Assembly: GCA_046484345.1 (NCBI GenBank)
Contig: JAWOJA010000010.1
Coordinates: forward strand, 1,811 to 65,810
Length of the DNA stretch: 64,000 bases
Direction of reading: 5' to 3'
Origin: Kiritimatiellia bacterium
GTDB lineage: Bacteria > Verrucomicrobiota > Kiritimatiellia > CAIKKV01
The notes beneath the pieces were generated by a model that saw only the letters and a list, made by a program, of their open reading frames with translations, searched no databases and had not been told where the DNA came from. The position numbers and the translations under genes were made by a program. This document shows positions 17,073-62,825 of the stretch, piece after piece (positions within the stretch are counted from its first letter, which is position 1; the number at the start of each line of letters is the position of its first letter).

Positions 17073-18466
17073 CGCATGATTTCGCCAAAAACCAGCCCCG
17101 TAATGGTCGACATCAAAACAACCAGGCCGACAAAAGTCAGCGTTTTGCGCGGCCCGAGAATGGAATTGATTACGATCATGCTGGGCAGGGAAAGGGCGGG
17201 GCCGGCCAGCAGGAGCGATAGCGCCGGGCCCTGGCCCATGCCGCTGTCCATCAGCCCGCGCAAAATGGGCACCTCGGTCAAGGTCGCGAAATACATCAGC
17301 GCCCCGGTTATGGAAGCGAAGAAATTGGTCCAGACGGGCCAGATGGCGGACAGCCAGCCGGGCAGGGCCGCGCCCTCGCCAACAAATCCCCAGAAGACGG
17401 CCGGCGAATCCCCCACGAGCGCCTGGATCCATCGGTTGGGAACGATGCCGGCGTCGATCGAATCGGGGCTGCCCAGGAAAAATCCCGCTGCGAGAACGCC
17501 GCCGAACAGCAGCGGGAGGATCTGTTTGGTGAATCCCCAGGTCTGGTCCCGCCAATCCTTGAGCTCCGTTCCCCCGCAAAATGTGAGGCTGGCCAATCCA
17601 GCCGCCCCGGCGGCAAAAGCGGCCACCGGATAGCCGGGGAATACCAGGGCCAGAATCACGGCCGGCACGGCAGCCAGGACGATCCAGAGCAACCGCACCC
17701 GGAAGAACCGCCACAAACAACCCGCCATGAGCACGGCAAACAGGCTCGTCACCAGCCATTTGGCCTTAAATATGGCATGCCAGATCCCGGTCTGTTCGAT
17801 CGGCCTGCCCCAGTTGGCGAACACCAGGATGCCCACCATGGAAAAGAAATAGAGGGCCACCTGCCAAAGAGGGCGGTTGCCCTTTTCGTCGCCCTCCAGA
17901 AAGATATCCTGCGCTTGCGCCGCCTTCGCCCGCTCCTCTTTCAGGAAAATAAGGTGCATCAGCAGGCCAATGACCACACTGAACACAACGGCCCCGATCG
18001 CCCGGGCGACACCCAACTGCCAGCCCAGCACGCGGGCGGTCAGCACGATGGCCAGGACATTGATGGCCGGGCCCGAGTAGAGGAAGGCAATGGCCGGGCC
18101 GAGGCCCGCGCCGCGCATATAAATCCCGCCGAACAGCGGAAGCACCGTGCAGGAACAGACGGCGAGGATGGCGCCGGATACCGATGCGACGGAATAGGAG
18201 AGCCACTTCGGGGCCTTGTGGCCGAAATACTTCATCACCGCGTTCTGACTCACGAACACCCCGATGGCGCCGGCGATGAAAAAGGCCGGCACCAGGCACA
18301 ACAGGACGTGTTCGCGGGCGTACCACTTCGCCAGCTTGACCGATTCAATGAGCGCGCCCTGAAAACGGGCCGCCTCGATGGGCAGGTAATACAGGAGCGC
18401 AAAAAGTCCGATCAACACGGCGAGAATTTTAAGTTCCTTGCGACCTTCTTCGTTCACGTCCGACAC
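17069..18466 (-). CDS. Permease, COG0701/DUF318 family with a conserved CSC motif (ArsP-like organoarsenical-permease relatives)
   Basis: 465 aa, polytopic. Motif AILAVCSCTVLPLF. ATGA overlap with tolC. The start overlaps the arsR2 3' end. Confidence 0.7.
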   Translation of the reverse strand: MSDVNEEGRKELKILAVLIGLFALLYYLPIEAARFQGALIESVKLAKWYAREHVLLCLVPAFFIAGAIGVFVSQNAVMKYFGHKAPKWLSYSVASVSGAILAVCSCTVLPLFGGIYMRGAGLGPAIAFLYSGPAINVLAIVLTARVLGWQLGVARAIGAVVFSVVIGLLMHLIFLKEERAKAAQAQDIFLEGDEKGNRPLWQVALYFFSMVGILVFANWGRPIEQTGIWHAIFKAKWLVTSLFAVLMAGCLWRFFRVRLLWIVLAAVPAVILALVFPGYPVAAFAAGAAGLASLTFCGGTELKDWRDQTWGFTKQILPLLFGGVLAAGFFLGSPDSIDAGIVPNRWIQALVGDSPAVFWGFVGEGAALPGWLSAIWPVWTNFFASITGALMYFATLTEVPILRGLMDSGMGQGPALSLLLAGPALSLPSMIVINSILGPRKTLTFVGLVVLMSTITGLVFGEIMR

Positions 18467-18755
18467 TCCTCTTTGTGATCCGGATCACGCCCATTGCGCA
18501 ATCGAAAATATTCAAAATGCAAGGGGTCCGCAGCTTCAGGTAACAGCGAACGCCCTCGCGGCGCTCGCTCACGATCCCCACATTTCTTAACTCGGTCACG
18601 TGTCGCGACAGCGTCGATTTGTTCATTGGAAACAAGGGCTGAAGCTCGCACATGCACCGCTCGCCCGTGCTCAGTTGGTCCACGATCTTCAAGCGGACCG
18701 GGCTGGAAAGAGCCTTCATGATCTTGGCGCGCGCCTTGAATTCTTCCGACTTCAT
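18429..18755 (-). CDS. arsR: ArsR/SmtB-family regulator (second copy), CxC site ERCMCEL
   Basis: 108 aa. HTH motif PVRLKIVDQLSTGERCMCELQPLFPMNKSTLSRHVTELRNVGIV. First gene of the minus-strand operon. Confidence 0.8.
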   Translation of the reverse strand: MKSEEFKARAKIMKALSSPVRLKIVDQLSTGERCMCELQPLFPMNKSTLSRHVTELRNVGIVSERREGVRCYLKLRTPCILNIFDCAMGVIRITKRSVGRERRRSQGT

Positions 18756-19368: not shown

Positions 19369-20301
19369 TCAGGGTTGCTTCCATTCGACGGTCACGGTGG
19401 CGGGCCGACCTTCGCGGCCGAACCGGTTTACGGTGGTGACGCAGAGGGTGTTGACGCCCGGCTCCAGCCTCCAGGCATAAGCCGCGCCGCGCGAATCCGG
19501 ATCCGGTCCCTCGCCGGGCAGTTGCGCGGGATCCCGGCCGGAGGCGGCGAACCGGAAGGACTGGAGATGGGGCGTGACGGTCTCGGCCAGGACGGTGATG
19601 ACCCCGGCCGTTTCCGAGGCGGTCAGAATCAGATACGGCGCGGAGGGCTCGGCATTTGTTTGAGAGCCGCTGGCAAACGGCGGGTTCCGGAAGTCCCGCA
19701 AGAGCAGGCCCTGGCTTTCCGCCGTGGCCCCGGTCTCGCCCCGGGCGATGACGGTGAGGCGGGTCAGAGCGGGCGCGATGACGCCCGATCCGGCAACAAG
19801 AACGGCCCGCACCTGGACAAAGCGGGCCGGCAGGGCATTTTCGGCCGGACGCCAGGGACTCCACCCCGCGTCGGGCCAAGGGGCGGCGCCGCTGCGGGCC
19901 TCGATTTTCACGGAGGCCGAGCCCGGCACAATGGCGCGCCACTGCACGGCGAGGCTTCGGATCTTGAAAAGAGGGACAATGGAACCGCCCTTGCCGGGGT
20001 CTGCCATATCGATGACGGGCGAGGTGATGAGGCCTGTGGCCGAATAGCGGGGGGCACGAACGGAGGCGCCCTCGTTGCCGGCGCCCGCGGTGGCGTTGTC
20101 AATTGGGGCGGACAGGCCGGTTTCCTGGCGAAGGGTGACAGCGCCCGGCGCGGCTTGCAGGTCGATGGCGGAATCCCTGAAAAAGGAATCGAATTCCGCG
20201 GCCGTGGCGAACGATTTCTCCACAGTGGCATCCGTGGCCCCGGTCGCCGCCGGTGCCACGGCGAGGGCCATAATAAAAAGCAGGCCAAGCTTGTTGGGCA
20301 T
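19369..20301 (-). CDS. Secreted hypothetical protein (signal peptide)
   Basis: 310 aa. N-terminal signal peptide (LLFIMALAVAPAATGA). No recognisable domain. Confidence 0.45.
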   Translation of the reverse strand: MPNKLGLLFIMALAVAPAATGATDATVEKSFATAAEFDSFFRDSAIDLQAAPGAVTLRQETGLSAPIDNATAGAGNEGASVRAPRYSATGLITSPVIDMADPGKGGSIVPLFKIRSLAVQWRAIVPGSASVKIEARSGAAPWPDAGWSPWRPAENALPARFVQVRAVLVAGSGVIAPALTRLTVIARGETGATAESQGLLLRDFRNPPFASGSQTNAEPSAPYLILTASETAGVITVLAETVTPHLQSFRFAASGRDPAQLPGEGPDPDSRGAAYAWRLEPGVNTLCVTTVNRFGREGRPATVTVEWKQP

Positions 20302-20424: not shown

Positions 20425-22779
20425 TTACTGGGCCAGGTGCAGGAACTTCTGAATCGCCGGGGAGAATTTGATGATCACGGGCGTGAACACGATGGCCACC
20501 ATGCTCATCAGCTTGATCAGGATGTTCATGGACGGCCCGGCGGTGTCCTTGCAGGGATCGCCCACGGTATCGCCGATCACGGCGGCGCCATGGACGGGGC
20601 TCTTGGCCTCGGCGCGGGTGGCGACGACTTCGCCCCGGGCGTTGATCCACTGGCCCTGGGCGTTCTTCAGATACTTGCCGCCCAGGTTGCCCTTTTCGAT
20701 GTGCTTCTTGGCGTTGTCCCAGGAACCGCCGGCGTTGTTCAGCATGCAGGCGAGGGAGAAGCCGGCGGTGAGGGCCCCGACCAGCAGGCCCATGATCCCG
20801 GCCACGCCCAGCACCAGGCCGGTGAGGACCGGCACGGCGATGGCCATCAGCGAGGGGAGCATCATTTCGCGCTGGGCGCCGGCCGTTGAGATCTGCACGC
20901 AGCGGGCGTAGTCGGGCTTGTCCGTCCCCAACATGATGCCGGGCTTCGACCGGAACTGGGCGCGCACCTCTTCGACCATGGCGCCGGCGGCGCGGCCGAC
21001 GGCTTTCATCGTCATGGCGCAGAAGACAAAGGCCATCATGGCGCCGAGGAAGATGCCGGCCAGCATGAAGGGGTTCAGGATGGTCAGGTTGAACTGGGCG
21101 ACCAGGTTCATCAGCTTCTCCTGGGCGGTGACGCAGAGCGCATAGGCGTCGTAGTCGAAGGGCATGCCCGTTTTGCCCTGCAGTTTGTGGACCCACAGGT
21201 CCACTTCCTGGACGACGGCCGCCAGCAGGGCCAAGGCGGTGAGGGCCGCCGAGGCGATGGCGAAGCCCTTGCCGGTGGCGGCCGTGGTGTTGCCGAGCAT
21301 GTCGAGGGCGTCGGTTTTTTCGCGGACCGTATGATCGAGTCCGGCCATTTCGGCGTTGCCGCCGGCGTTGTCGGCGATGGGGCCGTAGGCGTCGGTGGCG
21401 AGGGTGATGCCGAGGGTGGAGAGCATGCCGACCGCGGCGAAGGCGACGCCGTAAAGGCCGTCGCCCAGATCCGCCAGGCCGCCCGACAGAATGAAGGCGG
21501 CGAGGATGCCGAGGACGGTCGTGATGACGGCCGGCGCGGCGGACTGCATGCCCACCGCGAGCCCCTCGATGATAACGGTGGCCGGACCCATCTTGGCCTG
21601 GGCCGCGACGCTCTTGGTCGGGGTGTATTCATCGGAGGTGGCGCGCTCCGTGAAGTAGCCGATGATGACGCCGGCGAGCAGGCCGGCCACGGTGGCGCCG
21701 CAAACGCCCCAGGAGATAATGCCCAGCTTGGCCATGATGGCGGCGGCGACGATGATCAGGGCCGAGCTGCCCCAGGTTCCGACGCGCAGGGCCTTGAGCA
21801 GGGTCATCATGCTGGCGCCTTCCTTGCAACGCACGGCGAAGATGCCGGCCACGGAAAGAACTGTTCCGATACCCGCGATGATCATGGGAGCGGTCACCAT
21901 GCGGACCTGGTCCTGAACGTTCATGGCGATTGTGGCGCCCAGGGCCGCCGTGGCCAGGATGGATCCGCAATAGGATTCGTAGAGGTCCGCGCCCATGCCG
22001 GCCACGTCGCCCACATTGTCGCCCACGTTGTCCGCGATGGTCGCGGGGTTGCGCGGATCATCCTCGGGAATGCCCGCCTCGACCTTGCCGACCAGGTCCG
22101 CGCCCACATCGGCGGCCTTGGTGAAGATGCCGCCGCCCACGCGGGCGAAGAGCGCCTGGGTGGAGGCGCCCATGCCGAAGGTCAGCATGGTGGTGGTGAT
22201 TTCCACCATTTTCTCTTTCATCGAGCAATCAACCGGAACCAGGTGAAGGCCGAACACGGTCAGGCCGTTGACCATGTGCTCGGGCGTGAAGATGAGCCGG
22301 TCGAGGATCCAGTACCAGATGCAGATGTCCAGCAGGCCGAACCCGACCACCACGAGGCCCATGACGGCGCCGGAACGGAAGGCGACCTGCAGGCCGCGGT
22401 TCAGGCATTCGCTGGCGCCCTGGGCGGTGCGGCTCGAGGCGCTGGTGGCCGTTTTCATGCCGATGAAGCCGCACAGGCCCGAGAAGAACCCGCCGGTCAG
22501 GAAGGCCACCGGCACAAAGGGATTCTGCACCCCGAAGATGGCCAGGCCCAGAAAGATCATTACCAGGACGGCAAAGACGACGCCGACGCGCGAATACTGC
22601 TGCCGCAGGTAGGCCATGGCGCCTTCGCGGACATAGCCCGCGATCTCCTCCATGCGGGCGTTGCCGGCCGGCGCTTTCATCATGAGCTTGTAGCAGACCA
22701 AGGCGAAAAACAATCCGAAGAAGGCTCCGAAGGGAGCGATCCACCATGCGTTTGTTATACCCGAAACGACTTCGTTCAT
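20425..22779 (-). CDS. hppA: Membrane-bound proton/sodium-translocating pyrophosphatase (H+-PPase, K+-dependent type: GNTTAA)
   Basis: 784 aa, about 16 TM helices. Conserved motifs [40 protein letters not shown]. Confidence 0.9.
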
Positions 22780-23118: not shown

Positions 23119-24168
23119 ATGGCGAAAATTGAACCGATTGCGGTTGGCATTCTGGGTTACGGACGCGCGGGTTGCAGCATGCAGACCAACGAACTGAAGG
23201 CGCACGAGGGCAAGTTCCGCATCGCCGCCGTCTGCGACATCCTCCCCGCGCGGCGCGAAAAAGCCGCCGCCGCCCACGGTTGCAAGACTTACGCGACCAT
23301 CGGGGAGCTGCTCGCCGATCCCGAAATCGAGCTCGTCTGCGTGGCCACCCGCTCCTGCGACCACTTCAAGCACGCCATGATGGCCCTCAAGGCCAACAAG
23401 CTGGTGTTCCAGGAAAAGCCGATGTGCATGACCTTCGCCGAGGCCAAGAAACTTCGCGCCGAAGCCGCCAAGCACCACGACGCCCTGTTCATCCGCCACA
23501 ACCGGCGCTTCGAACCCCTCTTTCAGCACATCCGCGAAATCATCGCCTCCCGCATCCTGGGCGATGTCTTCGAAATCAAGCTCCGCCGCAACAGCTACGC
23601 CCGGCGCGACGACTGGCAGACCATCCGCCAATTCGGCGGCGGCCAGCTCCTGAACTGGGGCCCCCACATCATCGACCACGCCCTCCAGTTCCTGGGCACC
23701 CCGCCTGTGGATGTGTGGGGCGACCTGAAGAAAACGGCCGCCGCGGGCGACTCCGAGGACCATCTCAAAATCGTCATGAAAAACGAAAAGGGCCTCGTCG
23801 TCGACCTCGAAATCAGCGGCGGCAGCGCCATCGGCGAGCCCGAATACCTGGTCTCCGGCACCAAAGGCGCCCTCAAGGCCTCTGGCAAGACCATCACCTT
23901 GCGCTACTGGGATCCCAAGGTGAAACCCGTCAAACGGGTCGCCTCCCCGCAGACGCCGGAAACCGGTTTCGGAAGCAAGGACAACCTCGCCTGGATCGAC
24001 CAGGAAATCGAGGTGGCGCCCAAATTGAAATGCAACATGGCCTCCATCTGGGGCTGCCTGTTCGACACGATCCGCAAGGGCAAGCCCTTCCCCATCAGCC
24101 TCGACGAGGCGGTCGCCGTTATGGAAGTGGTCTCCTTCGTCAAGAAGGGCACGCCCTTCGAGGCCTGA
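23119..24168 (+). CDS. Gfo/Idh/MocA-family NAD(P)-dependent oxidoreductase
   Basis: 349 aa. N-terminal Rossmann motif IAVGILGYGRAG and the family's EKP motif (VFQEKPMCMT). Confidence 0.85.
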   Translation: MAKIEPIAVGILGYGRAGCSMQTNELKAHEGKFRIAAVCDILPARREKAAAAHGCKTYATIGELLADPEIELVCVATRSCDHFKHAMMALKANKLVFQEKPMCMTFAEAKKLRAEAAKHHDALFIRHNRRFEPLFQHIREIIASRILGDVFEIKLRRNSYARRDDWQTIRQFGGGQLLNWGPHIIDHALQFLGTPPVDVWGDLKKTAAAGDSEDHLKIVMKNEKGLVVDLEISGGSAIGEPEYLVSGTKGALKASGKTITLRYWDPKVKPVKRVASPQTPETGFGSKDNLAWIDQEIEVAPKLKCNMASIWGCLFDTIRKGKPFPISLDEAVAVMEVVSFVKKGTPFEA

Positions 24169-24204
24169 TCGACCGTTCCTAAAAACGCCCAATCCCAACA
24201 CCCA

Positions 24205-24253
24205 AAAAAGCCAAAAGGGCGCCAAAAAACGGCGCCTTTTGGCTTTTTTATTA
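24205..24253 (+). terminator. Rho-independent terminator after the oxidoreductase gene
   Basis: Roughly 18-bp stem AAAAAGCCAAAAGGGCGCC / GGCGCCTTTTGGCTTTTT with loop AAAAAAC, followed by TTTTTTATT. Confidence 0.6.
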
Positions 24254-24314
24254 TTTCGCTTGCCTTTTGAAAGCCGACGGGCCTACCATAGCTGATTATT
24301 TTTCGAAAGGTTTT

Positions 24315-25232
24315 ATGCAACCACCCGCCTCGCAAATATCGGCCTTCCTCCATCCGGAAGACATCTGTCTTCCCCTGTGCTCGGATTCCTCCCGGGCCGC
24401 CATCGAAACCCTGGTCCGCCACATCCACACGCGTCACGGGGGATTCGACCCCGCCGCCGCCGCCGCCGCCGTTGAAGCCCGTGAAAAGGTCATGCCCGTT
24501 ATCATGGAACGGGAGCTCGCCATGCTCCATGCCCGGCTCCCGGAGCTGACCCGGCCCCTGCTGGCCGTCGGCGTCTGCCCGAACGGCATCCCCATGTCCC
24601 CCCCCGCCGAGCCCGTCAAGGTCGTGGTGCTGACCCTCATTCCCAGCGGCGACCCCAACCTCTACCTGCGGATTCTCGCCGCCACCACCAAAGCCCTGCG
24701 CGCACCGCAGGCGATTGCCCGGATTGCCGCCGCACACACGCCGGACGAAGTTCTCGCCGTGCTCGGTCTCGCACCCGAACACCTGCCCGACGTCCTCGAC
24801 GTGCGCCATGTCATGAACGCCGCGCCGCGGACGCTCCGGGACACCGACACGCTCGGGGCCGCCATCGAATTTTTCTGCGCCAACACACTGATGGACCTTC
24901 CCGTGGTGAACGCCCAGAACGACGTGCTCGGTTCCATCGCCATCGAGGACCTGCTGCGCCTGGCCCTTCCCGTTCATTTGCGCTGGATGGAAGACCTCTC
25001 CCCCATCCTGCGCTTCGAACCCTTCGCCGAACTGCTCAAACGCGAGTCCGCCTCCCCTGTGACCCGCTTTATGCGCGCGGATGTTCTCTCCATCGCGCCC
25101 GACGTCCCGGCCATCCAACTCGCCAAACTGCTCCTGCTCGACGAACGACGCCAGGTGGTGGTGATGGAGGGCAAACGCCTCGTGGGCACCGTGGACCTTC
25201 ACAATTACGTCCGTAAACTTTTCTGGGATTAA
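24315..25232 (+). CDS. Regulatory protein: PTS EIIA-Ntr (PtsN-like, EIIA type 2) domain fused to a CBS-domain pair (module copy 1)
   Basis: EIIA-2 region with conserved His (ELAMLHARLPE), then two CBS domains. Start at ATG 24315 with GAAAGG RBS, chosen by alignment with the paralogue at 26836. Confidence 0.75.
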   Translation: MQPPASQISAFLHPEDICLPLCSDSSRAAIETLVRHIHTRHGGFDPAAAAAAVEAREKVMPVIMERELAMLHARLPELTRPLLAVGVCPNGIPMSPPAEPVKVVVLTLIPSGDPNLYLRILAATTKALRAPQAIARIAAAHTPDEVLAVLGLAPEHLPDVLDVRHVMNAAPRTLRDTDTLGAAIEFFCANTLMDLPVVNAQNDVLGSIAIEDLLRLALPVHLRWMEDLSPILRFEPFAELLKRESASPVTRFMRADVLSIAPDVPAIQLAKLLLLDERRQVVVMEGKRLVGTVDLHNYVRKLFWD

Positions 25233-25236
25233 CATC

Positions 25237-26718
25237 ATGCAAGAAGAAGAAGCCTCCGCCCCTTTAACCACCTCCGGATTTATCAAAAAAATCCTCATCC
25301 TCCTGGCCATCAGTTCCCTCACCGCCTGGTCCGGACGTTTTATCGGCCTCTCCACGCAGCAACAACTGGCCTCCGGGGTCTTTCTCTCGGCCATTCTGGG
25401 CACGTTGCTTTTCTGGAACCTCCGGCTGAGCATCGCTTTCATCGGGGTGAGCGTGCTCGTCATGACCCATTCCATGACCATCACCCAATATGTCGAATCC
25501 GCCGAAGTGCCCATCATCCTGTTTTTAATCGGCATGATGATCATCCTGGGCTGCCTGGAGGATCTCGGCTTCTTCACCTGGGTGGTCCAATCTATCATCT
25601 CGCTGCCCAACATGTCCGCCCGCCGCTTCGTCGCGGTGGTCAGCGTGGTCTCCGCCCTTCTCGCCTGCGCGGTGGGCGAGGTCGTCTCCATCATCATCAT
25701 CGTCACCTTGGTCTTCCAGGTCTGCGGCCGGCTCAAAATAAAACCCGTCCCGTTCGTCATCGCCTCGGTCATCGCCACCAACATCGGCAGCGCGGGAACC
25801 ATGATGGGCAACCCCGTGGGCATCCTCATCGGCGCCAAGGCGGGCTTCACCTTCGGCGATTTCATCGTCTGGGCCTTCCCCGTCATGGCCGCCTGCCTGG
25901 TGGCCAATATCCTGCTCACGTTCTTCGTCTACCGGCACTCGCTAAGCGGCTTTGACGCCGCCCTGTCGGAACGGGCCAGCAGCGGCACGACCGAGCCCCA
26001 GGTGCATGTCCCCTACAAGCGCAGCCTCGTCGTGCTCGGCGTCTCCATCCTGTGCATCGCCTTCCATCACCAGGCCGAACAGCTGCTGGGCATCGAGAAA
26101 AACTCGGTCCTCTTCCTGGCCCCGGTCTTCTGCGCCGCCTTCGTGATGCTCTATCGCCGCGACCGCGCCCGCCATTATGTGGAGCGCTCCGTGGACTGGT
26201 GGACGCTGCTTTTCTTCATGATGCTCTTCGCCATCGCCGGCGCCCTCAAATCCAGCGGGGTGACCACCGTGCTGGCGAAGCAATTCATCGCCCATTTCGG
26301 AACCAACCTGAACCTGCTCGTGGTGGGCATCACAGCCGTCTCGGCCGTCGGTTCGGCCTTCGTCGACAACGTCGTCTTCGTGGCCGCCTTCGCCCCCATC
26401 ATCGAGGGACTCAAGGCCACCGGCTTCACCGTCACCCCCCTCTGGTGGGCGCTGCTCTTCGGCGCCTGCTTCGGCGGCAACATCACGCTCATCGGCTCCA
26501 CCGCCAACATCGTGGCGCTCGGCATGCTGGAAAAACAGGCCCACACCCAGATCCGCTTCATGGACTGGCTCAAAGTCGGCCTGCTTTCAGCCGTGGTGAC
26601 CTGCGCGCTCGCGGGCGGCACGATCATCCTGCTCAAAAACCGGATGCCCGAAATTGACCTGTCCGCCGCGCACGAAACCCCCGAGGCCCCGCCGTCGGCG
26701 GCCCATTCGGCGGAATAG
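25237..26718 (+). CDS. Ion-transporter-superfamily permease (ArsB/NhaD/CitMHS-like) (module copy 1)
   Basis: 493 aa, polytopic. Conserved segments TNIGSAGTMMGNPVGILIG and GSTANIVALGML resemble the ArsB/NhaD family. Starts 4 nt after the regulator gene. Confidence 0.8.
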   Translation: MQEEEASAPLTTSGFIKKILILLAISSLTAWSGRFIGLSTQQQLASGVFLSAILGTLLFWNLRLSIAFIGVSVLVMTHSMTITQYVESAEVPIILFLIGMMIILGCLEDLGFFTWVVQSIISLPNMSARRFVAVVSVVSALLACAVGEVVSIIIIVTLVFQVCGRLKIKPVPFVIASVIATNIGSAGTMMGNPVGILIGAKAGFTFGDFIVWAFPVMAACLVANILLTFFVYRHSLSGFDAALSERASSGTTEPQVHVPYKRSLVVLGVSILCIAFHHQAEQLLGIEKNSVLFLAPVFCAAFVMLYRRDRARHYVERSVDWWTLLFFMMLFAIAGALKSSGVTTVLAKQFIAHFGTNLNLLVVGITAVSAVGSAFVDNVVFVAAFAPIIEGLKATGFTVTPLWWALLFGACFGGNITLIGSTANIVALGMLEKQAHTQIRFMDWLKVGLLSAVVTCALAGGTIILLKNRMPEIDLSAAHETPEAPPSAAHSAE

Positions 26719-26835
26719 AGCCCAACGCCTCCGGCACAGGCTTTGGCAAAAACCGCCGCATCGCCATTCGCGCTTGCGTACCGCCTCACATTCCGATACG
26801 ATGACGATCAAAATCGTTCACACGCGAGGCGCCAC

Positions 26836-27756
26836 ATGACTACGAATCCGCCCCCTCCGATGCTGCAGTACCTGCACCCCGAAGACATCCTGATGCCCCT
26901 CTGCTCGAACTCCGTGGAAGACACGATCTGCCGGCTCGTGCGCCACATCCACACCCGTCACGGCGGGTTCGACCCCGAATCCGCCATCAGCGCCGTCGAA
27001 GCCCGTGAAAAAGTCATGCCCGTCATCATGGAACGGGAACTGGCCATGCCCCACGCCCGGCTTTCGGAACTGACCCGGCCCCTGCTCGCCGTCGGCGTCT
27101 GCCCGGCCGGCATCCCCATGTCCCCTCCCGCCGACCCCGTCAAGGTCGTGGTGCTGACGCTCATCCCCAGCGGCGACCCCAACCTCTACCTGCGAATTCT
27201 CGCCGCCATCACCAAGGCGTTGCGCACGCCCCAGGCCATCGCCCGCATCGCCACCGCCCGCAACCCGGGCGAAGTGCTGGCGGTGCTCGGCATCTCGCCC
27301 GAACATCTGCCCGACGTCCTCACGGTGCGCCATGTCATGAACGGCGCGCCCCAGAAGCTCCGGAACACCGACACCCTCGGCGCCGCCATCGAACTCTTCT
27401 GCGCCAACCAGCTCATGGACATCCCCGTGGTGGATCCCCAAAACAACATCCTGGGCACCATCGCCGTCGAGGACCTGTTGCGCCTCTGCCTGCCGGTCCA
27501 CCTGCGCTGGATGGAGGACCTCTCCCCCATCCTCCGCTTCGAGCCCTTCGCCGAACTCGTCAAGCGCGACTCCGGCATGCCCCTCACCCACTTCATCCGC
27601 CAGGATATCCTCTCCATCGGCCCCGAGGTTCCCGCCATCCAGCTCACCAAGCTGTTCCTGCAGGACGAACGGCGCCAAGTGGTGGTGGTGGAGGACAAGC
27701 GCCTGGTGGGGACCGTCGATCTTCACGCCTTCGTCCGCAAATTATTCTGGGACTAA
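26836..27756 (+). CDS. PTS EIIA-Ntr + CBS-pair regulatory protein (module copy 2)
   Basis: About 80% identical to 24315-25232 by eye. His retained (ELAMPHARLSE). Confidence 0.75.
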   Translation: MTTNPPPPMLQYLHPEDILMPLCSNSVEDTICRLVRHIHTRHGGFDPESAISAVEAREKVMPVIMERELAMPHARLSELTRPLLAVGVCPAGIPMSPPADPVKVVVLTLIPSGDPNLYLRILAAITKALRTPQAIARIATARNPGEVLAVLGISPEHLPDVLTVRHVMNGAPQKLRNTDTLGAAIELFCANQLMDIPVVDPQNNILGTIAVEDLLRLCLPVHLRWMEDLSPILRFEPFAELVKRDSGMPLTHFIRQDILSIGPEVPAIQLTKLFLQDERRQVVVVEDKRLVGTVDLHAFVRKLFWD

Positions 27757-27760
27757 GTTC

Positions 27761-29257
27761 ATGCAAGACGAAATGGCCACGGCGCCCCTGAGCACCGGCG
27801 CGTTCATCAAAAAGATTCTCCTGCTGGTCGCGCTCAGCTCCGGCATCGCCTCCTGCGGCCGGTTCATCGGCCTTTCCGGGGAGCAACAACTCACCACCGG
27901 CGTTTTCCTCTCCGCCGTCATCGGCACTCTTTTTTTCTGGAACCTCCGGCTGAGCATCGCGTTTTTGGGCGTCAGCGCCCTGATCATGACCCGGGCCATG
28001 ACGATACCTCAATATGTCGGGTCCATCGAAATGCCCATCATCCTGTTTTTAATCGGCATGATGATCATCCTCGGCTGCCTGGAAGATCTGGGTTTTTTCA
28101 CCTGGATCGTGCAATCCATCATCTCCCTGCCCCGCATGTCCGCCCGCCGCTTCATCGCCATCGTCTGCGTGGCGGCCATGCTCCTGGCCTGCGCGATCGA
28201 TGAAGTCACCTCCATCATCATCATCGCCACGCTGATGTTCCAGGTCTGCGGCCGGCTGAAAACCAATCCGACCCCCTTCATCATGATCGCGGTCATCGCC
28301 ACCAACATCGGCAGCGCCGGCACCATGATGGGCAACCCCGTGGGCATTCTGATCGGGGCCAAGGCGGGCTTCACCTTCGGCGACTTTATCCGCTGGTCCT
28401 TCCCGGTCGTCCTGATCTGCACGGCCGCCAACATCGCCCTGCTTTTCTTCCTGTTCCGGAAAGAGCTGCGCCTCTTCGACGAGCGACTCCTGGAACATGC
28501 CGCCGCGGGTGGCGGAATCGAACCCGGCGTTCGGATCCCCTATAAACGCAGCCTCTTCATCCTCGGCCTGGTCCTGCTCTGCATCGCCCTGCACCACCAG
28601 GCCGAACAGCTGCTGGGCATCGAGAAAAATTCGGTGCTTTTCCTGGCGCCGATCTTCTGCGCGGCCGGGGTTATGCTCTATCGCCGCGACCGGGCCCGCC
28701 ATTACGTGGAGCACTCGGTGGACCTCTGGACGCTCCTCTTCTTCATGATGTTCTTCGCCATCGCCGGAGCCCTCAAGCACAGCGGGGTCACCGAAGTGCT
28801 GGCCCATAAATTCACCGGCGCGGTCAGCGGCAACACCGGAATGCTGGTCGCCGTCGTCATCGGCGTCTCGGCCATCGGCTCGGCCTTCGTGGACAATGTG
28901 GTCTTCGTGGCCGCCTTCGCCCCGATCGTCGAAGGCCTTCGCGCCACCGGGGCGGTCGTCACCCCCCTGTGGTGGGCCCTTCTTTTCGGCGCCTGCTTCG
29001 GCGGCAACATCACGATCATCGGCTCCACCGCCAACATCGTGGCTCTGGGGATGCTGGAAAAACAGGCCCATGCCCATATCCGCTTCAAGGATTGGCTGAA
29101 AATCGGGCTGGCCTCCGCCGCCCTCACCTGCGGCATCGCCACGGTATGGGTCCAGCTGACAATGCCCCACATGAAGGAGGCCTCTCCCCATGAACCCGAA
29201 ATCAAAATGGGCGGGGCCGTAGAAACCACCGCTCCCATTATCCCCGATTCTCCCTGA
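27761..29257 (+). CDS. Ion-transporter-superfamily permease (ArsB/NhaD/CitMHS-like) (module copy 2)
   Basis: 498 aa, about 75% identical to 25237-26718 by eye. Confidence 0.8.
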   Translation: MQDEMATAPLSTGAFIKKILLLVALSSGIASCGRFIGLSGEQQLTTGVFLSAVIGTLFFWNLRLSIAFLGVSALIMTRAMTIPQYVGSIEMPIILFLIGMMIILGCLEDLGFFTWIVQSIISLPRMSARRFIAIVCVAAMLLACAIDEVTSIIIIATLMFQVCGRLKTNPTPFIMIAVIATNIGSAGTMMGNPVGILIGAKAGFTFGDFIRWSFPVVLICTAANIALLFFLFRKELRLFDERLLEHAAAGGGIEPGVRIPYKRSLFILGLVLLCIALHHQAEQLLGIEKNSVLFLAPIFCAAGVMLYRRDRARHYVEHSVDLWTLLFFMMFFAIAGALKHSGVTEVLAHKFTGAVSGNTGMLVAVVIGVSAIGSAFVDNVVFVAAFAPIVEGLRATGAVVTPLWWALLFGACFGGNITIIGSTANIVALGMLEKQAHAHIRFKDWLKIGLASAALTCGIATVWVQLTMPHMKEASPHEPEIKMGGAVETTAPIIPDSP

Positions 29258-29849
29258 CCCAGGCCGCCGCCGCGGCCTCGCCGGGCGGAACCACCCCCAG
29301 AACAAGCCGCGCGGGCGGGTTTTGCCCCAGCTCCACGCTCCCGCGTTCGGGAAGGCAGACCAAGCCGCTTCCCAAAACCACCAGTTGAAAATCGCCCGCC
29401 TCGCGGCGCATCCAGTTCTCTGCGCCCGCCACCCATGCGGCCCCGCCCAGCGGCAGCCCCATTTCCGCCGTTTGTTCGGGGAGGCCCTGCGGCACCACCT
29501 CAACCCGAAGCAACGCGTCATCCGCATTCACTCGAAAACGAAGATTCCACCGGCCGGCCGCCAAAACCAACTCAGCCGCCAGCTCGGCCCCGGCTTGGTT
29601 AAACCGCAACCGGCCACGTGAAAACCGGGCCAGCTCCGCCGTTTGCCCCGCGGAACCCCGCGCCACAAGTTGGAACGGATGGGGAAGCGCTTCCGGATCG
29701 ATCAATTCCCGAACCGGCCCGCCCCGGAAAAGAAGGGATCGCAGGCCGCCACTGGCCAGGTCAAGCTGAAGCCGCCAAATCCGGCTTTCCAGCGCCTGCT
29801 CGGAACCCGACACCCCGTCGGGCGGCGCGCTGGGCGGGGCCGTGTTCAT
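29238..29849 (-). CDS. Hypothetical protein
   Basis: 203 aa. Its start overlaps the phosphomannomutase stop (ATGA). Its 3' end overlaps the convergent permease by 20 nt. No recognisable domain. Confidence 0.4.
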   Translation of the reverse strand: MNTAPPSAPPDGVSGSEQALESRIWRLQLDLASGGLRSLLFRGGPVRELIDPEALPHPFQLVARGSAGQTAELARFSRGRLRFNQAGAELAAELVLAAGRWNLRFRVNADDALLRVEVVPQGLPEQTAEMGLPLGGAAWVAGAENWMRREAGDFQLVVLGSGLVCLPERGSVELGQNPPARLVLGVVPPGEAAAAAWVRENRG

Positions 29850-31168
29850 GCGCGGATCAGCTCCAGCAGCTCGTCACGCTTGCGCTCCATGCGGGCCTTT
29901 GTCTTGGCCTCCAGGTTCAACCGCACCAGCGGCTCGGTGTTGGAACAGCGCACGTTGAACCACCAGTCGTCATACTCCACGCTCACCCCGTCCAACTCGA
30001 TCGTGCGGCCGTCCGCATACTTTTTGCGCATCGCCCGCAGAACGGCCTGTGGATCGTGCACCTCGGAGTTGATCTCGCCGCTGGCGAAATAACGCTGAAT
30101 CGGGCGGATCAGCTCGGAAAGCGGCTTGCCGGACCGCCCCACGATGTCGGCCACGGCGAGCACCGCCATGGCGGAGCTTTCAGTGTAATAGTTGTCTCGG
30201 AAATAGTAGTGCCCGGAGAGCTCGCCGGCAAAAAGGGCCTTGGCATCGCGCATCTGTTGCTTGATGAAGGCATGCCCCACCCGGCTCATCATGGGCGTGC
30301 CGCCGTTTTCCTCAATGACCTCCTTGACCGCCCAGCTGCTGCGAAGGTCGTAGAAAATCACGCCCTTCTCCTTTTGCAGCACGCTTTCGGCCACCAAGGC
30401 GGTGATGATGTCCATCGGAACCACGTCGCCCTTCTCATCCAGGAACCCCGCGCGGTCGGCATCGCCGTCAAAGGCCACGCCAAAGGCGTATCCGCCTTGC
30501 CGGACCCGCTCCTGAAGCGCTTCAAGCGTCTCCGTTTTCAGCGGGTTGGCCTCGTGGTTCGGGAAGGTCCCATCCAGAGTGTCGAACAGAGGATCGATCT
30601 CCAGGAGCCCTTCGAAGCAGCGGGCCTCCATGACGCCCATGGAATTGGCGAAATCCACCGCCACCTTCAGCTTGCGGGCCGGCCGGACCTTCTCCTGCAC
30701 GTGTTTCACGTATTCGGGTACAATGTCCACCCTGGATACCTTGCCCGGCGCGGCGGCAAGCGGGGCAAAGGCCCCGGATTCCACAATATTCTCGATATCC
30801 TGGATGCCCGTGGCCCCGCTGATCGGCACCGCCTGGGCGCGGCAGGGTTTGAATCCGTTCCACTCTCCGGGATTGTGCGAGGCCGTGATCATGATGCTGC
30901 CGTCGGCCCCCAGCGAGCCGTTGGCGAAATAGGACATGGGCGTGGAGCAGAGCCCCAGCCCGATGACATCACAGCCCTGGCGGGTCAGCCCGCGGGCCAG
31001 GGCCTCGAAAAGAGGCACGGAATGGGGCCGCATATCCATCCCCACCACCACCTTGCGGGGCTTGTTGAGAAACGTGGCATAGGCGCGGCCGATTTTTTCG
31101 GCCGTCTCGTCGGTCAGCGTCTGACCGTAAATCCCGCGAATATCATAGGCTTTGAAAATGCCGGACAT
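29846..31168 (-). CDS. Phosphomannomutase/phosphoglucomutase (alpha-D-phosphohexomutase family)
   Basis: 440 aa. Active-site TASHNPGEWNGFK. Four-domain PGM/PMM layout. Confidence 0.85.
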   Translation of the reverse strand: MSGIFKAYDIRGIYGQTLTDETAEKIGRAYATFLNKPRKVVVGMDMRPHSVPLFEALARGLTRQGCDVIGLGLCSTPMSYFANGSLGADGSIMITASHNPGEWNGFKPCRAQAVPISGATGIQDIENIVESGAFAPLAAAPGKVSRVDIVPEYVKHVQEKVRPARKLKVAVDFANSMGVMEARCFEGLLEIDPLFDTLDGTFPNHEANPLKTETLEALQERVRQGGYAFGVAFDGDADRAGFLDEKGDVVPMDIITALVAESVLQKEKGVIFYDLRSSWAVKEVIEENGGTPMMSRVGHAFIKQQMRDAKALFAGELSGHYYFRDNYYTESSAMAVLAVADIVGRSGKPLSELIRPIQRYFASGEINSEVHDPQAVLRAMRKKYADGRTIELDGVSVEYDDWWFNVRCSNTEPLVRLNLEAKTKARMERKRDELLELIRA

Positions 31169-34285: not shown

Positions 34286-35374
34286 ATGTTTATCACCGTC
34301 GTGTGTCCAAAATGCGGCCGCAGCATCAAGGCAAAAAAGAAATTCGTTCTGGGCTCCGGGGGCGTGCCCTGCCTGAAATGCAGGGTCCGCATCCCCGTTT
34401 CCCGGGAGCAGGTGGAGGCCTACAAGCCCGCGTCCGCCGTGGAGGAAGAGGCGGAAACCATGGCCGGACTCGAAACTGCGCCCGATTCGGCAGAAGCGGC
34501 GCCCCTGTCCCCCGCCGTGCAGGAAACCCCGCCTGAGCCCGAAGCCATTCCGGAACCCGAACCGCTGCCGCAGGCGGAACCTTTCGCGCCCACCGACTCC
34601 GTGCCCCTGCTCGAGGACACGGATCGCATCACCGGTGCCATCTCTCTCGAATACGAGCAGGAAGCCGAAAAAAAGACAACTGCCGCACAGGAAGCGGCTC
34701 CGTCGGGAACGGGGCCTCAAATCACCTTCACGTGCCAGTATTGCCAGACCCAATACCCGCTGCGCCAGGCTCTTGCCGGCAAAAAAATACGTTGCAAAAG
34801 CTGTTCGCGCATCGTCAAGGTGGCCCCCGATTCCCCCGTCATCCAAGCCAACGAACCGACTCCCCCGCCGCCGCTTGAGGACGATATCCCCGTCGTCTTC
34901 TCCCCGGCCTTTGTGCCGCAGACTCCCGAACCAAATCCGCCGCCGCCTCTTCCGCCGCCTCCTCCGCCGCCTCCGCCGCCTCCTCCGCCGTCCCGGGAGG
35001 CCCCCGTTTTTTCCTCAACAGATGGAACAGCCACGGAAGTCGTTAACCGACTTCGCAAGGCGCTCGCGGAAGCCGAGGAACGGGCCAACAGCGCCGAAGA
35101 ACTGTTGCACCGCTCCAATCAGGAAAAAATGAACGCGGAAATGGTCGCCTTCCGGAAAATCCGGGACCTGGAAACCCAAGTTCGTGACCTCAGCGGCCAA
35201 TTGAAAGAGCGGGAGGCACAAAGCCGCTCCGCCGGCAGGCTAAACCGGGCCGATGTGGAGGCGTTGCTCAAATCGTTGTGCGACGAGTTGGACGCCAACC
35301 TGAAGCAGGAAATCGCGGCGCACCAAAACCTGCTTGAGGATCTGAAGAAGCAACTGAAACAGGCCCTGCAGTAG
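34286..35374 (+). CDS. Double zinc-ribbon (MJ0042-type CxxC...CxxC x2), proline-rich, coiled-coil protein
   Basis: CPKCGRS...CLKCRV and CQYCQTQ...CKSCSRI. An 18-residue poly-Pro run. C-terminal heptad-repeat region (EAEERANSAEELLHRSNQEKMNAEM...). Confidence 0.7.
   Translation: MFITVVCPKCGRSIKAKKKFVLGSGGVPCLKCRVRIPVSREQVEAYKPASAVEEEAETMAGLETAPDSAEAAPLSPAVQETPPEPEAIPEPEPLPQAEPFAPTDSVPLLEDTDRITGAISLEYEQEAEKKTTAAQEAAPSGTGPQITFTCQYCQTQYPLRQALAGKKIRCKSCSRIVKVAPDSPVIQANEPTPPPPLEDDIPVVFSPAFVPQTPEPNPPPPLPPPPPPPPPPPPPSREAPVFSSTDGTATEVVNRLRKALAEAEERANSAEELLHRSNQEKMNAEMVAFRKIRDLETQVRDLSGQLKEREAQSRSAGRLNRADVEALLKSLCDELDANLKQEIAAHQNLLEDLKKQLKQALQ
34937..34990 (+). repeat. Simple sequence repeat (CCGCCTCCT-like) encoding the poly-proline tract
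   Basis: CCGCCGCCTCTTCCGCCGCCTCCTCCGCCGCCTCCGCCGCCTCCTCCGCCG sits within the CDS. Confidence 0.6.
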
Positions 35375-35407: not shown

Positions 35408-37084
35408 TCAATCGATCGGAAACCGGGCGGTCAGCGCGAGCGCCTGCTCGCGCAACTTGGCCAGCGCCGGCTCATCACCGGCTTGGCGCAAGCCTTCCGT
35501 GATCAACTGGGCGATGGTTTCCATTTCCGCCTCCTTCATGCCGCGCGTGGTCACCGCCGCGGTGCCCAGCCGAATGCCCGACGTCTGGAACGGACTGCGC
35601 GTGTCGAACGGAATGGAATTCTTGTTGCACGTCACCCCCGCCTTTTCGAGGGCGTTGGCGGCGTCCTTGCCCGACAGGCCGGTCGGAGCCAGGTCCACCA
35701 GCATCAGATGATTGTCCGTGCCGCCGGAGATGATACGCAATCCGGAAGCCGCCAGCCGGTCGGCCAGCACGCGGGCGTTCACCAGTATCTGGGCGATGTA
35801 GGCCCGGAAGGCGGGCTGCTCGGCTTCATGGAAACAGACCGCCTTGGCCGCCACCGCGTGCATGAGGGGCCCGCCCTGGATGCCGGGGAACACCTGCTTA
35901 TCGATGTCGGCGGCATATTTTTCGCGGCACAAGATCAGGCCGCTGCGGGGACCCCGCAGGGTCTTGTGCGTGGTGGTGGTGACCACATCGCAGAAGGGAA
36001 CGGGATTGGGATGGCCGCCGCCCGCCACCAGGCCGGCGATGTGGGCCATATCCACCATCAGCAGGGCGCCGACGGAATCGGCAATGTGCCTCAGCCGCTC
36101 GAAATCGAGCAGGCGCGGATAAGCGCTGGCGCCGGCCACGAGGAGCCGCGGCTTGCGCTCCTTCGCCAAGCGCTCGACCTCGTCGTAATCGATCAGCTCG
36201 GTCTTCGGGCTGACCCCGTAATGGCTGACCTTGTACAGGCGGCCCGAAAAATTGACGGCGCTGCCGTGCGTCAGGTGCCCGCCCTGGTCCAGCCGCATGG
36301 CGAGAATGGCGTCGCCCGGCTGCAGAAGGGCGAAATAGACCGCCATGTTCGCGCCGCTTCCGCTGTGGGGCTGCACATTGGCGTGATCAGCGCCAAAAAG
36401 GGACTTGGCCCGCTCGATGGCCAGCCGCTCCACCTCGTCAACCCACAGGCAGCCGTTGTACCAGCGTTTGCCGGGATAGCCTTCGGCGTATTTGTTCGTG
36501 AGCAGGGAGCCCTGCGCCTCGCGGACCGCGCGACTGCTGTAGTTTTCGGAGGCGATCAGGTCGATCGTCTCGGCCTGGCGCCGCCGCTCGCCCTCCATGG
36601 CGGCGTAGAGCTCCGGATCGGCGGCGGCGATCTCCAGCGGATCGGTAACGCCCGAGCCGCCCATCTTGAAAACCCGCCGCCGGTGGCGCTCCGCCATGTC
36701 GGGAACAGCCTTCAGCCAGGCCTCGAGAATGGCGTCGGCCTGCGCCGGCGTCGTGTGCCGCCCTGAAAGGACCAGCACGTTGGCCTCGTTATGGGACCGC
36801 GTCATGGCCGCCATTTCCGGGGTCATGCACAGCGCCGCGCGGACCTTGGGATACTTGTTGGCCGCCATGCTCATGCCCTGGCCAGTGGTGCAGACGAGCA
36901 GGCCCAGGTCGGCCCGGCCGGTCGTGACGGCCGCGGAAACTGAATTGGCGAAATCCGTATAATCGCAGGAATCCGGCTTGCCGCAGCCCAGGTCCTCAAT
37001 CACAATACCCCGGGCCTGGAGCGTGCGCTTCAGGTGTTCCTTCAACTCAAAGCCGCCGTGGTCGGCGCCCAATGCCCATTTCAT
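35408..37084 (-). CDS. glyA: Fusion protein: ribose-5-phosphate isomerase B (RpiB/LacAB family) N-terminal domain plus serine hydroxymethyltransferase (GlyA)
   Basis: Residues 1 to about 145 are [18 protein letters not shown]...[24 protein letters not shown] (RpiB). The remainder carries SHMT motifs [65 protein letters not shown]. The reading frame is continuous. Confidence 0.85.
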
Positions 37085-38181
37085 GACTGTCCCTTTCCAT
37101 CCGACCGGTCAAGCCGATCAAGATCGTGCACGGTTAAAAGCAATTCCGGAAACGCCGCTTCGATCTCCCCGAGGATGCGCTCATATTCGCCGGGCGTGCC
37201 GCCCAGCGGATCCTCCACATCGCCGCCCCGCTCGCGGCTGTCGAAGTCCTTCATTAGATGAACCCGGGCGGCGGCATCCGGAAAACGCCGCCTCACGGTC
37301 GCACGGTGACTGTGGGTCATTACCACAATCAGCCTCGCCTCGTCAACCAGTTCCCTTGTCAGCGGCCGGCTGCGATGCGCCGCGCCGTCCAGCCCCCGCG
37401 CGGCCAGTGTTTCGCGGGCCAACCCGGTGGCGGGAAAGCCGTCCGCCGCCTCCACGCCCGCGGACGCGGTGCGCCAGGCGAAGCCGCTTTCCCGGAGCCG
37501 GTGCCGGAAGCTGATTTCGGCCATCGCGCTGCGGCAGGTGTTGCCGGTGCAGACAAACAGCACCAGCGGCAGGAAGGCCTCCCTCACCCGCTCCTCGGGA
37601 ATGGCGCCGGCCCGCAAAATCTCCACTGCGCCCCGGCAGGTCCGCACCACGGTGGAGGCCTCGCCGAGGCGGCAGGGTCCGGAATCCAGGGCCAGGGCCA
37701 CGCCGTGACCGAGCGCGGCCACCGCTTCCGCGCAGGTGACGGCCGCCGGGGCGCCGCTCGTGTTGGCGCTGGTCACGCGCAAGGGGCGCCCCATTTTTTG
37801 AAGAACCGCCCGCATGACGGCGTGGTCGGGCACGCGAAAGCCCTCCTCCCCCGCCGACGCACTCAGCACCAGCGTCAGGGGCCCCGGCCAAAACCGGGCC
37901 GCCAGCGCTCGGGCGCGCTCGTCGAGCACGCCGCCGAATTCCAACACCTGCCGGCGGTCCGCGGCCATGAGCGGCAGGGGCTTGCCCTCATCGCGCCCCT
38001 TGAGGGCGTAAATCCGGGCCTCCACACCCGGAGCCTCCGGATCGCCCGCCAGCCCGTAGACCGTTTCCGTGGGCACAAGAATCAGTTCGCCGGCTTTCAA
38101 AAGACGGACGGCGGTATCCACGGCGCCCGCTTCGGGGCGGCGCGGATCAATGGGACGCAGCGAGGGGCGGGACGGGGGCAT
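37081..38181 (-). CDS. tsaC: Fusion protein: L-threonylcarbamoyladenylate synthase (TsaC/YrdC/Sua5 domain) plus low-molecular-weight protein tyrosine/arginine phosphatase
   Basis: N-terminal YrdC fold ([15 protein letters not shown]). C-terminal LMW-PTP P-loop [16 protein letters not shown] with the DP motif. Confidence 0.8.
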
Positions 38182-62686: not shown

Positions 62687-62825
62687 GCCTCTATCCTTCC
62701 CTTACGCATTCGCGCATCCTACCGCTTCCTCCAGGCCGGCGCAACGCTCAAATTCCACCCGCCATTTTCGGCGCAAGGAGTGCTTTCTTTTTGAAAAAGG
62801 ATTCTCTAAGATTATTCGAATATTC

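Follow-up and report, generated by a model that had tools for sequence, protein, structure and literature searches.

The stretch analysed here (the window) comprises 64,000 nucleotides of a 96.8-kb contig from a Kiritimatiellia metagenome-assembled genome (MAG). Between positions 24315 and 29257, the forward strand carries four intact open reading frames (ORFs) arranged head to tail as two collinear units. Each unit consists of a gene for a cytoplasmic regulator (Reg1 and Reg2), in which an EIIA domain of the phosphotransferase system (PTS) is joined to a pair of CBS domains, followed by a gene for a permease of the ion transporter (IT) superfamily (Perm1 and Perm2). In both units, the regulator stop codon is separated from the permease ATG by 4 nucleotides (Table 1). 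An initial annotation, made from the sequence alone, had described this layout, and the ORF coordinates, the Pfam matches and the NCBI gene calls all confirm it. The four ORFs are exactly the NCBI products MFO7534250-53, and the frameshifts or stops that the annotation had considered for one of the copies are absent. The NCBI product names are "PTS sugar transporter subunit IIA" for the regulators and "SLC13 family permease" for the permeases.

A strong bidirectional hairpin resembling an intrinsic terminator lies upstream of the module, 3' of a GFO/IDH/MocA oxidoreductase gene, and is the predicted upstream limit of the transcription unit. The terminator scan revealed no terminator-like hairpin in the spacer between Perm1 and Reg2. 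A sigma-70 scan detected no promoters, which says little for this phylum. An Rfam search of positions 23800-29900 gave no match at E ≤ 1, riboswitches included, and in seven related loci only a tRNA and no riboswitch reached the gathering score.

The two units go back to one old tandem duplication that took in both genes, and all four resulting genes have since been under purifying selection. Their DNA is 75% identical over 2526 aligned columns, with few short gaps in the coding part. The homology starts just inside the regulator genes (at about 24330 and 26855) and stops near the C-terminus of the permeases (at about 26640 and 29170), and the 5' leader, the 117-nucleotide spacer and the 3' ends are unrelated between the copies in the DNA alignment. 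At the protein level, Reg1 and Reg2 are 79% and Perm1 and Perm2 71% identical, which means that the 75-80% paralogue identity initially proposed fits the regulators and the DNA and is slightly high for the permeases. All of these values lie above the 50% below which the units were to be regarded as independent genes, and the copies are collinear over the whole unit. The ratio of non-synonymous to synonymous substitution rates (dN/dS) amounts to 0.25 between the regulators and to 0.35 between the permeases; dS is about 0.6 in either case. Because of these values, we agree with the earlier view that the duplication is not recent and that both copies have been maintained.

Relatives from other samples allow the duplication to be placed in time. 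P0124, which comes from another sample, shares 80% identity with Perm1, compared to 71% for Perm2. Perm2 is 76-77% identical to P0122 and P0123, and Reg1 is 84% identical to P0008, the first regulator on contig L005. This independent metagenome contig carries a regulator-permease-regulator array and ends 193 nucleotides past the second regulator. Since Perm1, Perm2 and Reg1 are each closer to proteins of other samples than to their own paralogue, the duplication is, judging by these identities, older than the split from several other sampled organisms, and neighbour-joining topologies agree with this order of events. Two points weigh against such a dating: the closest relative of Reg2 is still Reg1 in pairwise identities, and the support values of the neighbour-joining trees were not read, the pairwise identities being relied on.

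Both regulators match the PTS_EIIA_2 domain (PF00359) with 60.6 and 65.8 bits (cutoff 27), covering positions 2-141 of the 144 profile positions, and each contains two stretches matching the CBS domain (PF00571) with 37-38 bits (cutoff 24). In an alignment of 71 sequences with 30-80% identity, H73, R75, G92, and P115 of the EIIA domain are invariant and R57 is nearly so. H73 aligns to the phospho-histidine of IIA-Mtl (1a3a) and PtsN (3urr) within the AVPHG/AIPHG motif, which supports the initial statement that the phosphorylatable histidine is retained in both copies. R57 aligns to the catalytic arginine of these proteins, as tested at the IIA-Mtl positions H65 and R49. The second histidine of IIA-Mtl and PtsN (H111/H120) aligns to tyrosine in most members. 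The same 71 sequences share a linker block between the two CBS repeats, LPxHLxWMEDLSPILxFEPFAE, with P220, W225, D228, L229, P237, and F238 invariant; in Reg2, it reads LPVHLRWMEDLSPILRFEPFAE (residues 219-240). Our literature searches returned no description of this invariant 22-residue motif. Eight distant regulators keep the His/Arg pair, and their linker block is recognisable.

The regulators are clearly distinct from PtsN itself. They score 16.8 and 21.4 bits on the PtsN equivalog model TIGR01419 (cutoff 138.7), and with 305 and 306 residues and the added CBS pair they differ from the single-domain PtsN proteins of about 150-165 residues. An AlphaFold2 (AF2) model of Reg2 has a predicted local distance difference test score (pLDDT) of 86 and a predicted template modelling score (pTM) of 0.51, which suggests two rigid domains connected by a flexible hinge. 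The model matches IIA-Ntr (1a6j) with a target-normalised template modelling (TM) score of 0.80 and the CBS pairs of AcuB, CBSX, and OpuCA with E-values of about 1e-9 to 1e-11, and its fold matches include CBS pairs bound to AMP, ADP, and c-di-AMP. No solved structure covering the EIIA and CBS domains together was matched in the fold search with this model. The regulators have no DNA-binding domain, and therefore any regulation must be post-translational.

Both permeases match CitMHS (PF03600), which is a superfamily-level model, with 172-180 bits, and their matches to the Pfam families ArsB (26-34 bits, cutoff 22.2), Na_sulph_symp, and DctM are far weaker. The NCBIfam matches included no CitM/CitH-type model, and citrate genes were not seen nearby. 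The best-scoring curated model was MamN (NF040989) with 101.7 and 90.6 bits, compared to a cutoff of 500. The DASS/SLC13 model TIGR00785 gave 65.7-67.3 bits (cutoff 198.6) and the ArsB models NF011980, TIGR00935, and NF033877 gave 35-56 bits (cutoffs 415-760). The NhaD models TIGR00775 and NF038006 had no match at E ≤ 0.01 among the window permeases and weak matches only to the distant permeases (Perm') described below. The AF2 model of Perm2 (pLDDT 85, pTM 0.84) has the inverted two-repeat elevator fold, with the internal repeat also visible in the hidden Markov model (HMM) alignment. In Foldseek comparisons, its target-normalised TM score was 0.81-0.83 to VcINDY, 0.82 to ArsB (10tp), and about 0.6-0.75 to NaDC3, NaS1, and Pho90, with an identity to all matched structures of only 12-17%. 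According to its predicted fold, the permease thus belongs to the elevator proteins of the IT superfamily, with no clear preference for DASS over ArsB.

The hairpin tips, where solved relatives bind substrate and coupling ions, have a composition of their own. In the HMM alignment, the segment S-A-F-V-D378-N379-V falls on the Ser-Asn-Thr motifs of VcINDY, and in place of the two DASS Ser-Asn-Thr tips the permeases carry D-E-V (G-E-V in Perm1) and D-N-V. In ArsB of L. ferriphilum, N111, D112, D148, N158, N337, and S380 are metalloid- or proton-site residues, N111 and D112 serving in substrate binding and proton coupling (PMC13381914). Direct alignment places D147-E148 (G147 in Perm1) on N111-D112, and N182, G195, N379, and S422 on D148, N158, N337, and S380, so that only two of the six functional residues (N337 and S380) are kept. 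Altogether, the substrate and coupling-ion positions of solved relatives are occupied here by three carboxylates together with Asn, Thr, and Ser, and these residues are invariant or nearly so in 50 members. Such residues would suit an anion less well than a cationic or neutral cargo combined with proton coupling; we take this as a lean and not as proof.

Perm1 and Perm2 keep almost all conserved residues in both copies, and the difference at the first hairpin tip stands out. Perm1 has CAVGEVVS instead of CAVDEVTS, i.e., G147 and V150 at positions where 44 of the 48 other family members carry D and T. G147 is common to Perm1 and four relatives (P0124, P0126, P0127, and P0129). In the proposed history, an ancient tandem duplication within one Kiritimatiellia lineage would have copied the whole unit, and copy 1 would then have gained D147G and T150V. 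Because one copy has changed at a substrate-site position, sub- or neofunctionalisation appears more likely than redundancy, with a probable difference between the copies in stoichiometry or in the ions that they accept. A tandem duplication alone is ordinary; the main value of the locus is this natural D147G contrast between paralogues, which provides a built-in comparison for specificity.

The regulator has about 200 detectable cluster-level relatives and is found in at least 164 species-level genomes, mostly from Kiritimatiellia (Pontiella, Tichowtungia) and Lentisphaerota (Victivallis vadensis, Victivallales). It also occurs in Hydrogenedentota, in one Sedimentisphaerales (Planctomycetota) MAG, and in the gammaproteobacterium Thiogranum. 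In 73 of the 80 fetched loci, a Perm2-like permease (47-71% identity) lies 3' of the regulator on the same strand, and one further contig ends inside the permease. The median gap between the two genes is 28 nucleotides (30 loci measured), and in Thiogranum their order is reversed, with the permease preceding the regulator. Look-ups that started from the permease, in Tichowtungia aerotolerans and for an abundant 562-residue variant, revealed the regulator immediately upstream in both cases. The pair that the initial annotation suggested looking for in other genomes is thus present there, and synteny across phyla, seen from either gene, agrees with its view of a functional pair. We regard a partnership of regulator and permease as likely. 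When the ORFs within about 7-8 kb of the regulator were clustered over 79 loci, none besides the pair and shadow ORFs recurred in more than eight loci. The unit therefore stands by itself, and its surroundings offer no hint as to the substrate.

When 1.84 billion representatives were searched with a profile, 430 proteins matched at E ≤ 1e-30, and most of the best 150 matches were full-length EIIA-CBS proteins of about 300 residues. Distant regulators with 25-30% identity are likewise followed by an ArsB/NhaD-like permease of 410-435 residues wherever the contig continues (L087, L089, and L090). On contigs L007 and L008, a distant pair adjoins a close pair and is transcribed divergently (L008:7517-9750, reverse strand, and L007:169-2318; 25% and 30% identity to the window genes). 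The distant permease, Perm', scores best on MamN (175-182 bits) and then on ArsB. Because distant regulators are also paired with an IT-type permease, the pairing is, as far as these sequences indicate, older and broader than the Kiritimatiellia family.

Many family permeases are enlarged. P0188, P0195, P0196, P0214, and P0218 carry extensions of 80-290 residues, mostly at the C-terminus, and no Pfam domains were found in the extensions of homologues of 560-760 residues. The abundant 562-residue variant mentioned above is P0196; the indexed contigs that carry it are spread over 78 blocks of the collection.

A link to monovalent cation transport comes from the 418-residue protein P0247 of a Planctomycetota MAG (JGI 3300041081; L086:2800-9257), in which MrpG is fused in frame to an EIIA-CBS regulator. 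The MrpG part scores 107 bits on TIGR01300 (cutoff 63), the regulator part is 46-51% identical to ordinary family members, and the gene is the last one of an mrpABCDEF operon. The nearest MrpG relatives, P0400 and P0401, are MrpG::TrkA_N fusions that carry TrkA_N (RCK) at the same position. Regulatory domains appear to have been swapped at the MrpG C-terminus in this Planctomycetota lineage, and the EIIA-CBS unit thus seems able to take the place of other such domains on an antiporter of monovalent cations and protons. That a protein of the EIIA-Ntr type can regulate cation/proton exchange is shown by PtsN of E. coli, which controls K+ transport and has the K+/H+ antiporter YcgO among its targets (PMC7349511). 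An apparent MrpG extension in L023 was rejected as a tblastn read-through of non-coding DNA.

In the mechanism that we propose, each unit would form a two-protein transport system, consisting of a membrane-embedded secondary transporter and a dedicated cytoplasmic regulatory subunit. The permease would work as an IT-superfamily elevator and would probably be dimeric like its solved relatives VcINDY and ArsB. Phosphorylation of H73 by HPr or NPr would report phosphoenolpyruvate (PEP)/pyruvate and the carbon-nitrogen status, and an adenine nucleotide would occupy the CBS pair, a type of module that binds such nucleotides in other transporters. The regulator may form dimers, as is common for CBS pairs, and would dock on the cytoplasmic face of the permease and switch transport on or off post-translationally, much as PtsN controls TrkA, KdpD, and YcgO and as CBS pairs gate MgtE, CorB, ClC, and OpuA. 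Contact may be made through the invariant linker between the CBS domains, possibly within a 2:2 complex. We infer the regulator-permease contact, the phosphorylation of H73, the CBS ligand, and the substrate from these comparisons. As cargo, a proton-coupled cation, such as in Na+ or K+/H+ exchange, seems the most likely choice, which we put forward tentatively and because of the acidic tip positions D147-E148 and D378-N379 and the one member fused to MrpG. The combined statement, a post-translationally gated and probably proton-coupled cation transporter, is one that we favour with moderate confidence. It is possible, if rather doubtful, that EIIA-CBS proteins represent a class of portable gates in which PTS phosphorylation and adenylate status are integrated and which ion transporters have acquired more than once. 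They would then serve as a separate subunit of at least two IT permease subfamilies outside the tested curated models, and once as a C-terminal part of MrpG, where they would replace RCK/TrkA_N. The permeases would constitute a new family of proton-coupled cation transporters, with D-type and G-type paralogues differing in ion selectivity.

Several observations weigh against a gated cation transporter. Literature searches, with partial coverage, yielded no transport, binding, or phosphorylation experiment for any member. In six Lentisphaeria/Victivallales loci (L030, L031, L038, L044, L048, and L073), the regulator has no permease within up to 10 kb on each side and sits beside varied housekeeping genes, for instance those for phosphoribosyl pyrophosphate (PRPP) synthetase, riboflavin synthase, a GyrB-like protein, and a 2-hydroxyacid dehydrogenase. 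In these genomes, the regulator acts on a different target or its permease gene lies at another site. The canonical ribose-binding pattern of CBS domains is only partly kept in the window copies: as read from the sequence, CBS1 has G-T-I-A-V-E-D, with the Asp kept and the Ser/Thr replaced by Ala, and CBS2 has the non-canonical G-T-V-D-L-H-A. Neither the window nor about 1.3 Mb of fetched loci gave a tblastn match to HPr, NPr, or EI from E. coli and B. subtilis. The larger window ORFs, picked by a codon-bias heuristic, showed no other PTS genes in Pfam scans either, just as the initial annotation had stated for the window. The MrpG fusion is a single protein cluster, its contig ends 28 nucleotides past the gene, and a homologue search with the fusion protein found no MrpG::EIIA-CBS cluster beyond that of P0247. 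Finally, the Asp-Asn tip is also present in distant ArsB/NhaD-like permeases (Perm' of L008), and the acidic tips thus do not prove a cationic cargo.

An anionic cargo would be expected if the permeases were DASS/SLC13-like carriers of di- or tricarboxylates, sulfate, or phosphate on which EIIA-CBS imposes carbon control of the inducer-exclusion type. The best solved structures by sequence and fold, namely VcINDY, NaDC3, NaS1, and Pho90, speak for such a carrier, as do the Pfam label "Citrate transporter", the NCBI product name and the classical inhibition of carbon-source permeases by EIIA proteins (PMC10710835). We nevertheless consider it unlikely, given that the DASS model stays far below its cutoff, the permeases are no more identical to DASS structures than to ArsB, the Na+/carboxylate-binding Ser-Asn-Thr is replaced by family-invariant Asp-Glu and Asp-Asn, and no organic-acid catabolic gene is conserved nearby. 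Of the "anion or cation" transport suggested initially, the anion option is weakened by the acidic hairpin tips. The same annotation had raised an ArsB-like function because of an arsenic context, which would make the permeases arsenite/antimonite efflux pumps of an arsenic-resistance region. The fold does resemble L. ferriphilum ArsB, the weak Pfam ArsB match exceeds its cutoff, and genes for an ArsR-type helix-turn-helix (HTH) protein and an ArsP_1 permease are located at 17069-18755. However, the curated ArsB models failed by a wide margin, four of the six ArsB residues are replaced, and arsC, arsA, and arsD are all missing. The ArsR and ArsP_1 genes lie 5.8 kb from the module on the other strand, separated from it by a rhamnose mutarotase gene, an unannotated ORF, and the pyrophosphatase and oxidoreductase genes, and no ars gene recurs beside the module in 79 loci. 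We therefore rejected the arsenic link, and an efflux pump of this kind is very improbable.

The gating half of our interpretation would also change if the EIIA domain were a fossil, i.e., a dimerisation or ligand-binding fold that is never phosphorylated, so that regulation, if any, would come from the CBS pair alone. The lack of PTS donor genes in the DNA searched, the scores far below the PtsN cutoff, and the tyrosine in place of the second histidine would all agree with this. PTS donor genes are, however, normally unlinked to regulatory EIIA targets, as in PTS-Ntr, and the invariance of the histidine and near-invariance of the arginine over 71 sequences, with both kept in the distant subfamily, would be hard to explain without phosphotransfer chemistry. 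We judge a fossil domain to be quite improbable. As the source is a MAG, the tandem copy could in principle reflect an assembly or binning artefact in which two strain variants were joined head to tail. The copies differ at one base in four and the independent contig L005 shows the same regulator-permease-regulator layout, which makes this hardly conceivable; moreover, the flanks are unrelated, each copy has its own closest relatives elsewhere, and both copies are intact frames under purifying selection.

Individual features of the gated cation transporter that we favour are known from other systems. PtsN, which acts on TrkA, KdpD, and YcgO/CvrA, likewise is an EIIA type-2 protein with a phosphorylatable histidine that works post-translationally on cation transport and has no role in sugar transport (PMC7349511). 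PtsN, however, is a free single domain encoded beside rpoN with many unlinked targets, whereas the EIIA domain of the module shares its chain with a CBS pair and is genetically tied to one permease. MgtE, CorB/CorC/CNNM, ClC, and OpuA/OpuC similarly have a cytoplasmic CBS pair beside a membrane transporter, which typically senses ATP, AMP, Mg-ATP, or c-di-AMP (PMC10710835). In these systems, the CBS pair belongs to the transporter polypeptide itself or to an ABC ATPase, while here it resides on a separate subunit together with an EIIA domain. In inducer exclusion by EIIA-Glc (acting on LacY and MalK) and in the IIA domain of LacS, a non-PTS transporter responds directly to whether a PTS EIIA protein or domain is phosphorylated (PMC10710835), as we propose for the present module. 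EIIA-Glc, however, has a different fold (PF00358, compared to PF00359 for EIIA type-2) and targets sugar permeases of the MFS, ABC, and GPH types and not the IT superfamily.

On the permease side, VcINDY/SLC13 and Pho90 share the elevator fold, with lower similarity to Pho90, and Pho90 also carries a cytosolic sensor domain (SPX). The low identity, the different hairpin tips and the DASS model score set the window permeases apart from VcINDY and its SLC13 relatives. ArsB, an H+/arsenite antiporter (L. ferriphilum 10tp and related entries), has the same fold, and its acidic residues near the hairpin tip mediate proton coupling (PMC13381914); the window permeases differ from it in the functional residues, the model scores and the lack of an ars operon. 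MamN and generic ArsB/NhaD-type PF03600 permeases come closest by curated score, and the distant Perm' permeases of this type are also paired with EIIA-CBS, but the window permeases remain below the MamN cutoff and have no magnetosome context. We know of no established substrate of MamN.

The ingredients of the module are thus known, namely regulation of ion transport by PtsN, CBS gating, and regulated IT carriers such as Pho90-SPX. The literature, searched with partial coverage, gave no description of an EIIA-CBS subunit, of its obligate pairing with this permease family, or of the MrpG fusion, and searches on EIIA and CBS together with CitMHS or antiporters, as well as on the PTS in Kiritimatiellota, Lentisphaerae, and the Planctomycetes-Verrucomicrobia-Chlamydiae (PVC) group, returned nothing on the module. 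If our interpretation is correct, EIIA-CBS proteins would be a dedicated type of regulatory subunit for secondary transporters, through which the PTS, as a sensor of carbon/nitrogen status and PEP, and the adenylate status would act on ion transport. This would concern hosts (Kiritimatiellota, Lentisphaerota, and other PVC relatives) in which PTS function is essentially unexplored. It would also make a large and unannotated part of the IT superfamily accessible, in which the proteins are now mislabelled as "SLC13 family permease", "PTS sugar transporter subunit IIA", or "Na+/H+ antiporter NhaD/arsenite permease-like". Should our interpretation be wrong, the locus would amount to no more than an ordinary regulated permease that was duplicated long ago. 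Cultured strains that carry the module exist in Tichowtungia aerotolerans, Pontiella spp., and Victivallis vadensis, which makes the hypothesis directly testable.

Table 1. Features of the duplicated module and of its surroundings in the window.
Feature	Position	Strand	Description
Reg1	24315-25232	+	305 aa; cytoplasmic regulator; PTS EIIA type-2 (Ntr/Mtl/Fru-like) domain and CBS pair
Perm1	25237-26718	+	493 aa; IT-superfamily permease; derived "G-type"; D147G, T150V
Spacer Perm1/Reg2	26719-26835	+	117 nt; no terminator-like site, no Rfam match
Reg2	26836-27756	+	306 aa; EIIA type-2 domain and CBS pair; R57, H73, R75 present
Perm2	27761-29257	+	498 aa; IT-superfamily permease; ancestral "D-type"; tips D147-E148, D378-N379
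Hairpin	24214-24240	both	bidirectional, intrinsic-terminator-like; 10-bp stem, T-runs on either side
GFO/IDH/MocA oxidoreductase	23119-24168	+	
H+/Na+-translocating pyrophosphatase	20425-22779	-	784 aa; membrane-bound; 816 bits on H_PPase
ArsR-type HTH gene	18429-18755	-	
ArsP_1 permease	17069-18466	-	
Phosphoglucomutase-family gene	29846-31168	-	

The neighbours of the module, which also include genes for an asparaginase and a tRNA methyltransferase, are overall unrelated housekeeping genes. The pyrophosphatase gene is situated 1.5 kb upstream of the module and is not conserved at this place in other genomes. Apart from the ArsR-type and ArsP_1 genes, with ArsR preceding ArsP_1, the window has no genes of arsenic type. 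The ArsP ORF is long and overlaps the ORF for the outer-membrane factor of an RND efflux triad (11594-17759), and one of the two start codons is probably overcalled.

Four sizeable ORFs of the window (4934-6793 and 34286-35374 on the forward strand, 19369-20301 and 62748-63899 on the reverse strand) have a coding-like GC content at third codon positions (GC3) and no Pfam match at E ≤ 1e-4. Two further ORFs on the reverse strand combine unusual domains. The ORF at 35408-37084 (558 residues) joins a ribose-5-phosphate isomerase B domain (LacAB_rpiB, residues 3-139) to a full serine hydroxymethyltransferase (residues 152-527), and the ORF at 37081-38181 (366 residues) joins a Sua5/YciO/YrdC domain of the threonylcarbamoyl-AMP synthase type to a low-molecular-weight phosphotyrosine phosphatase domain.

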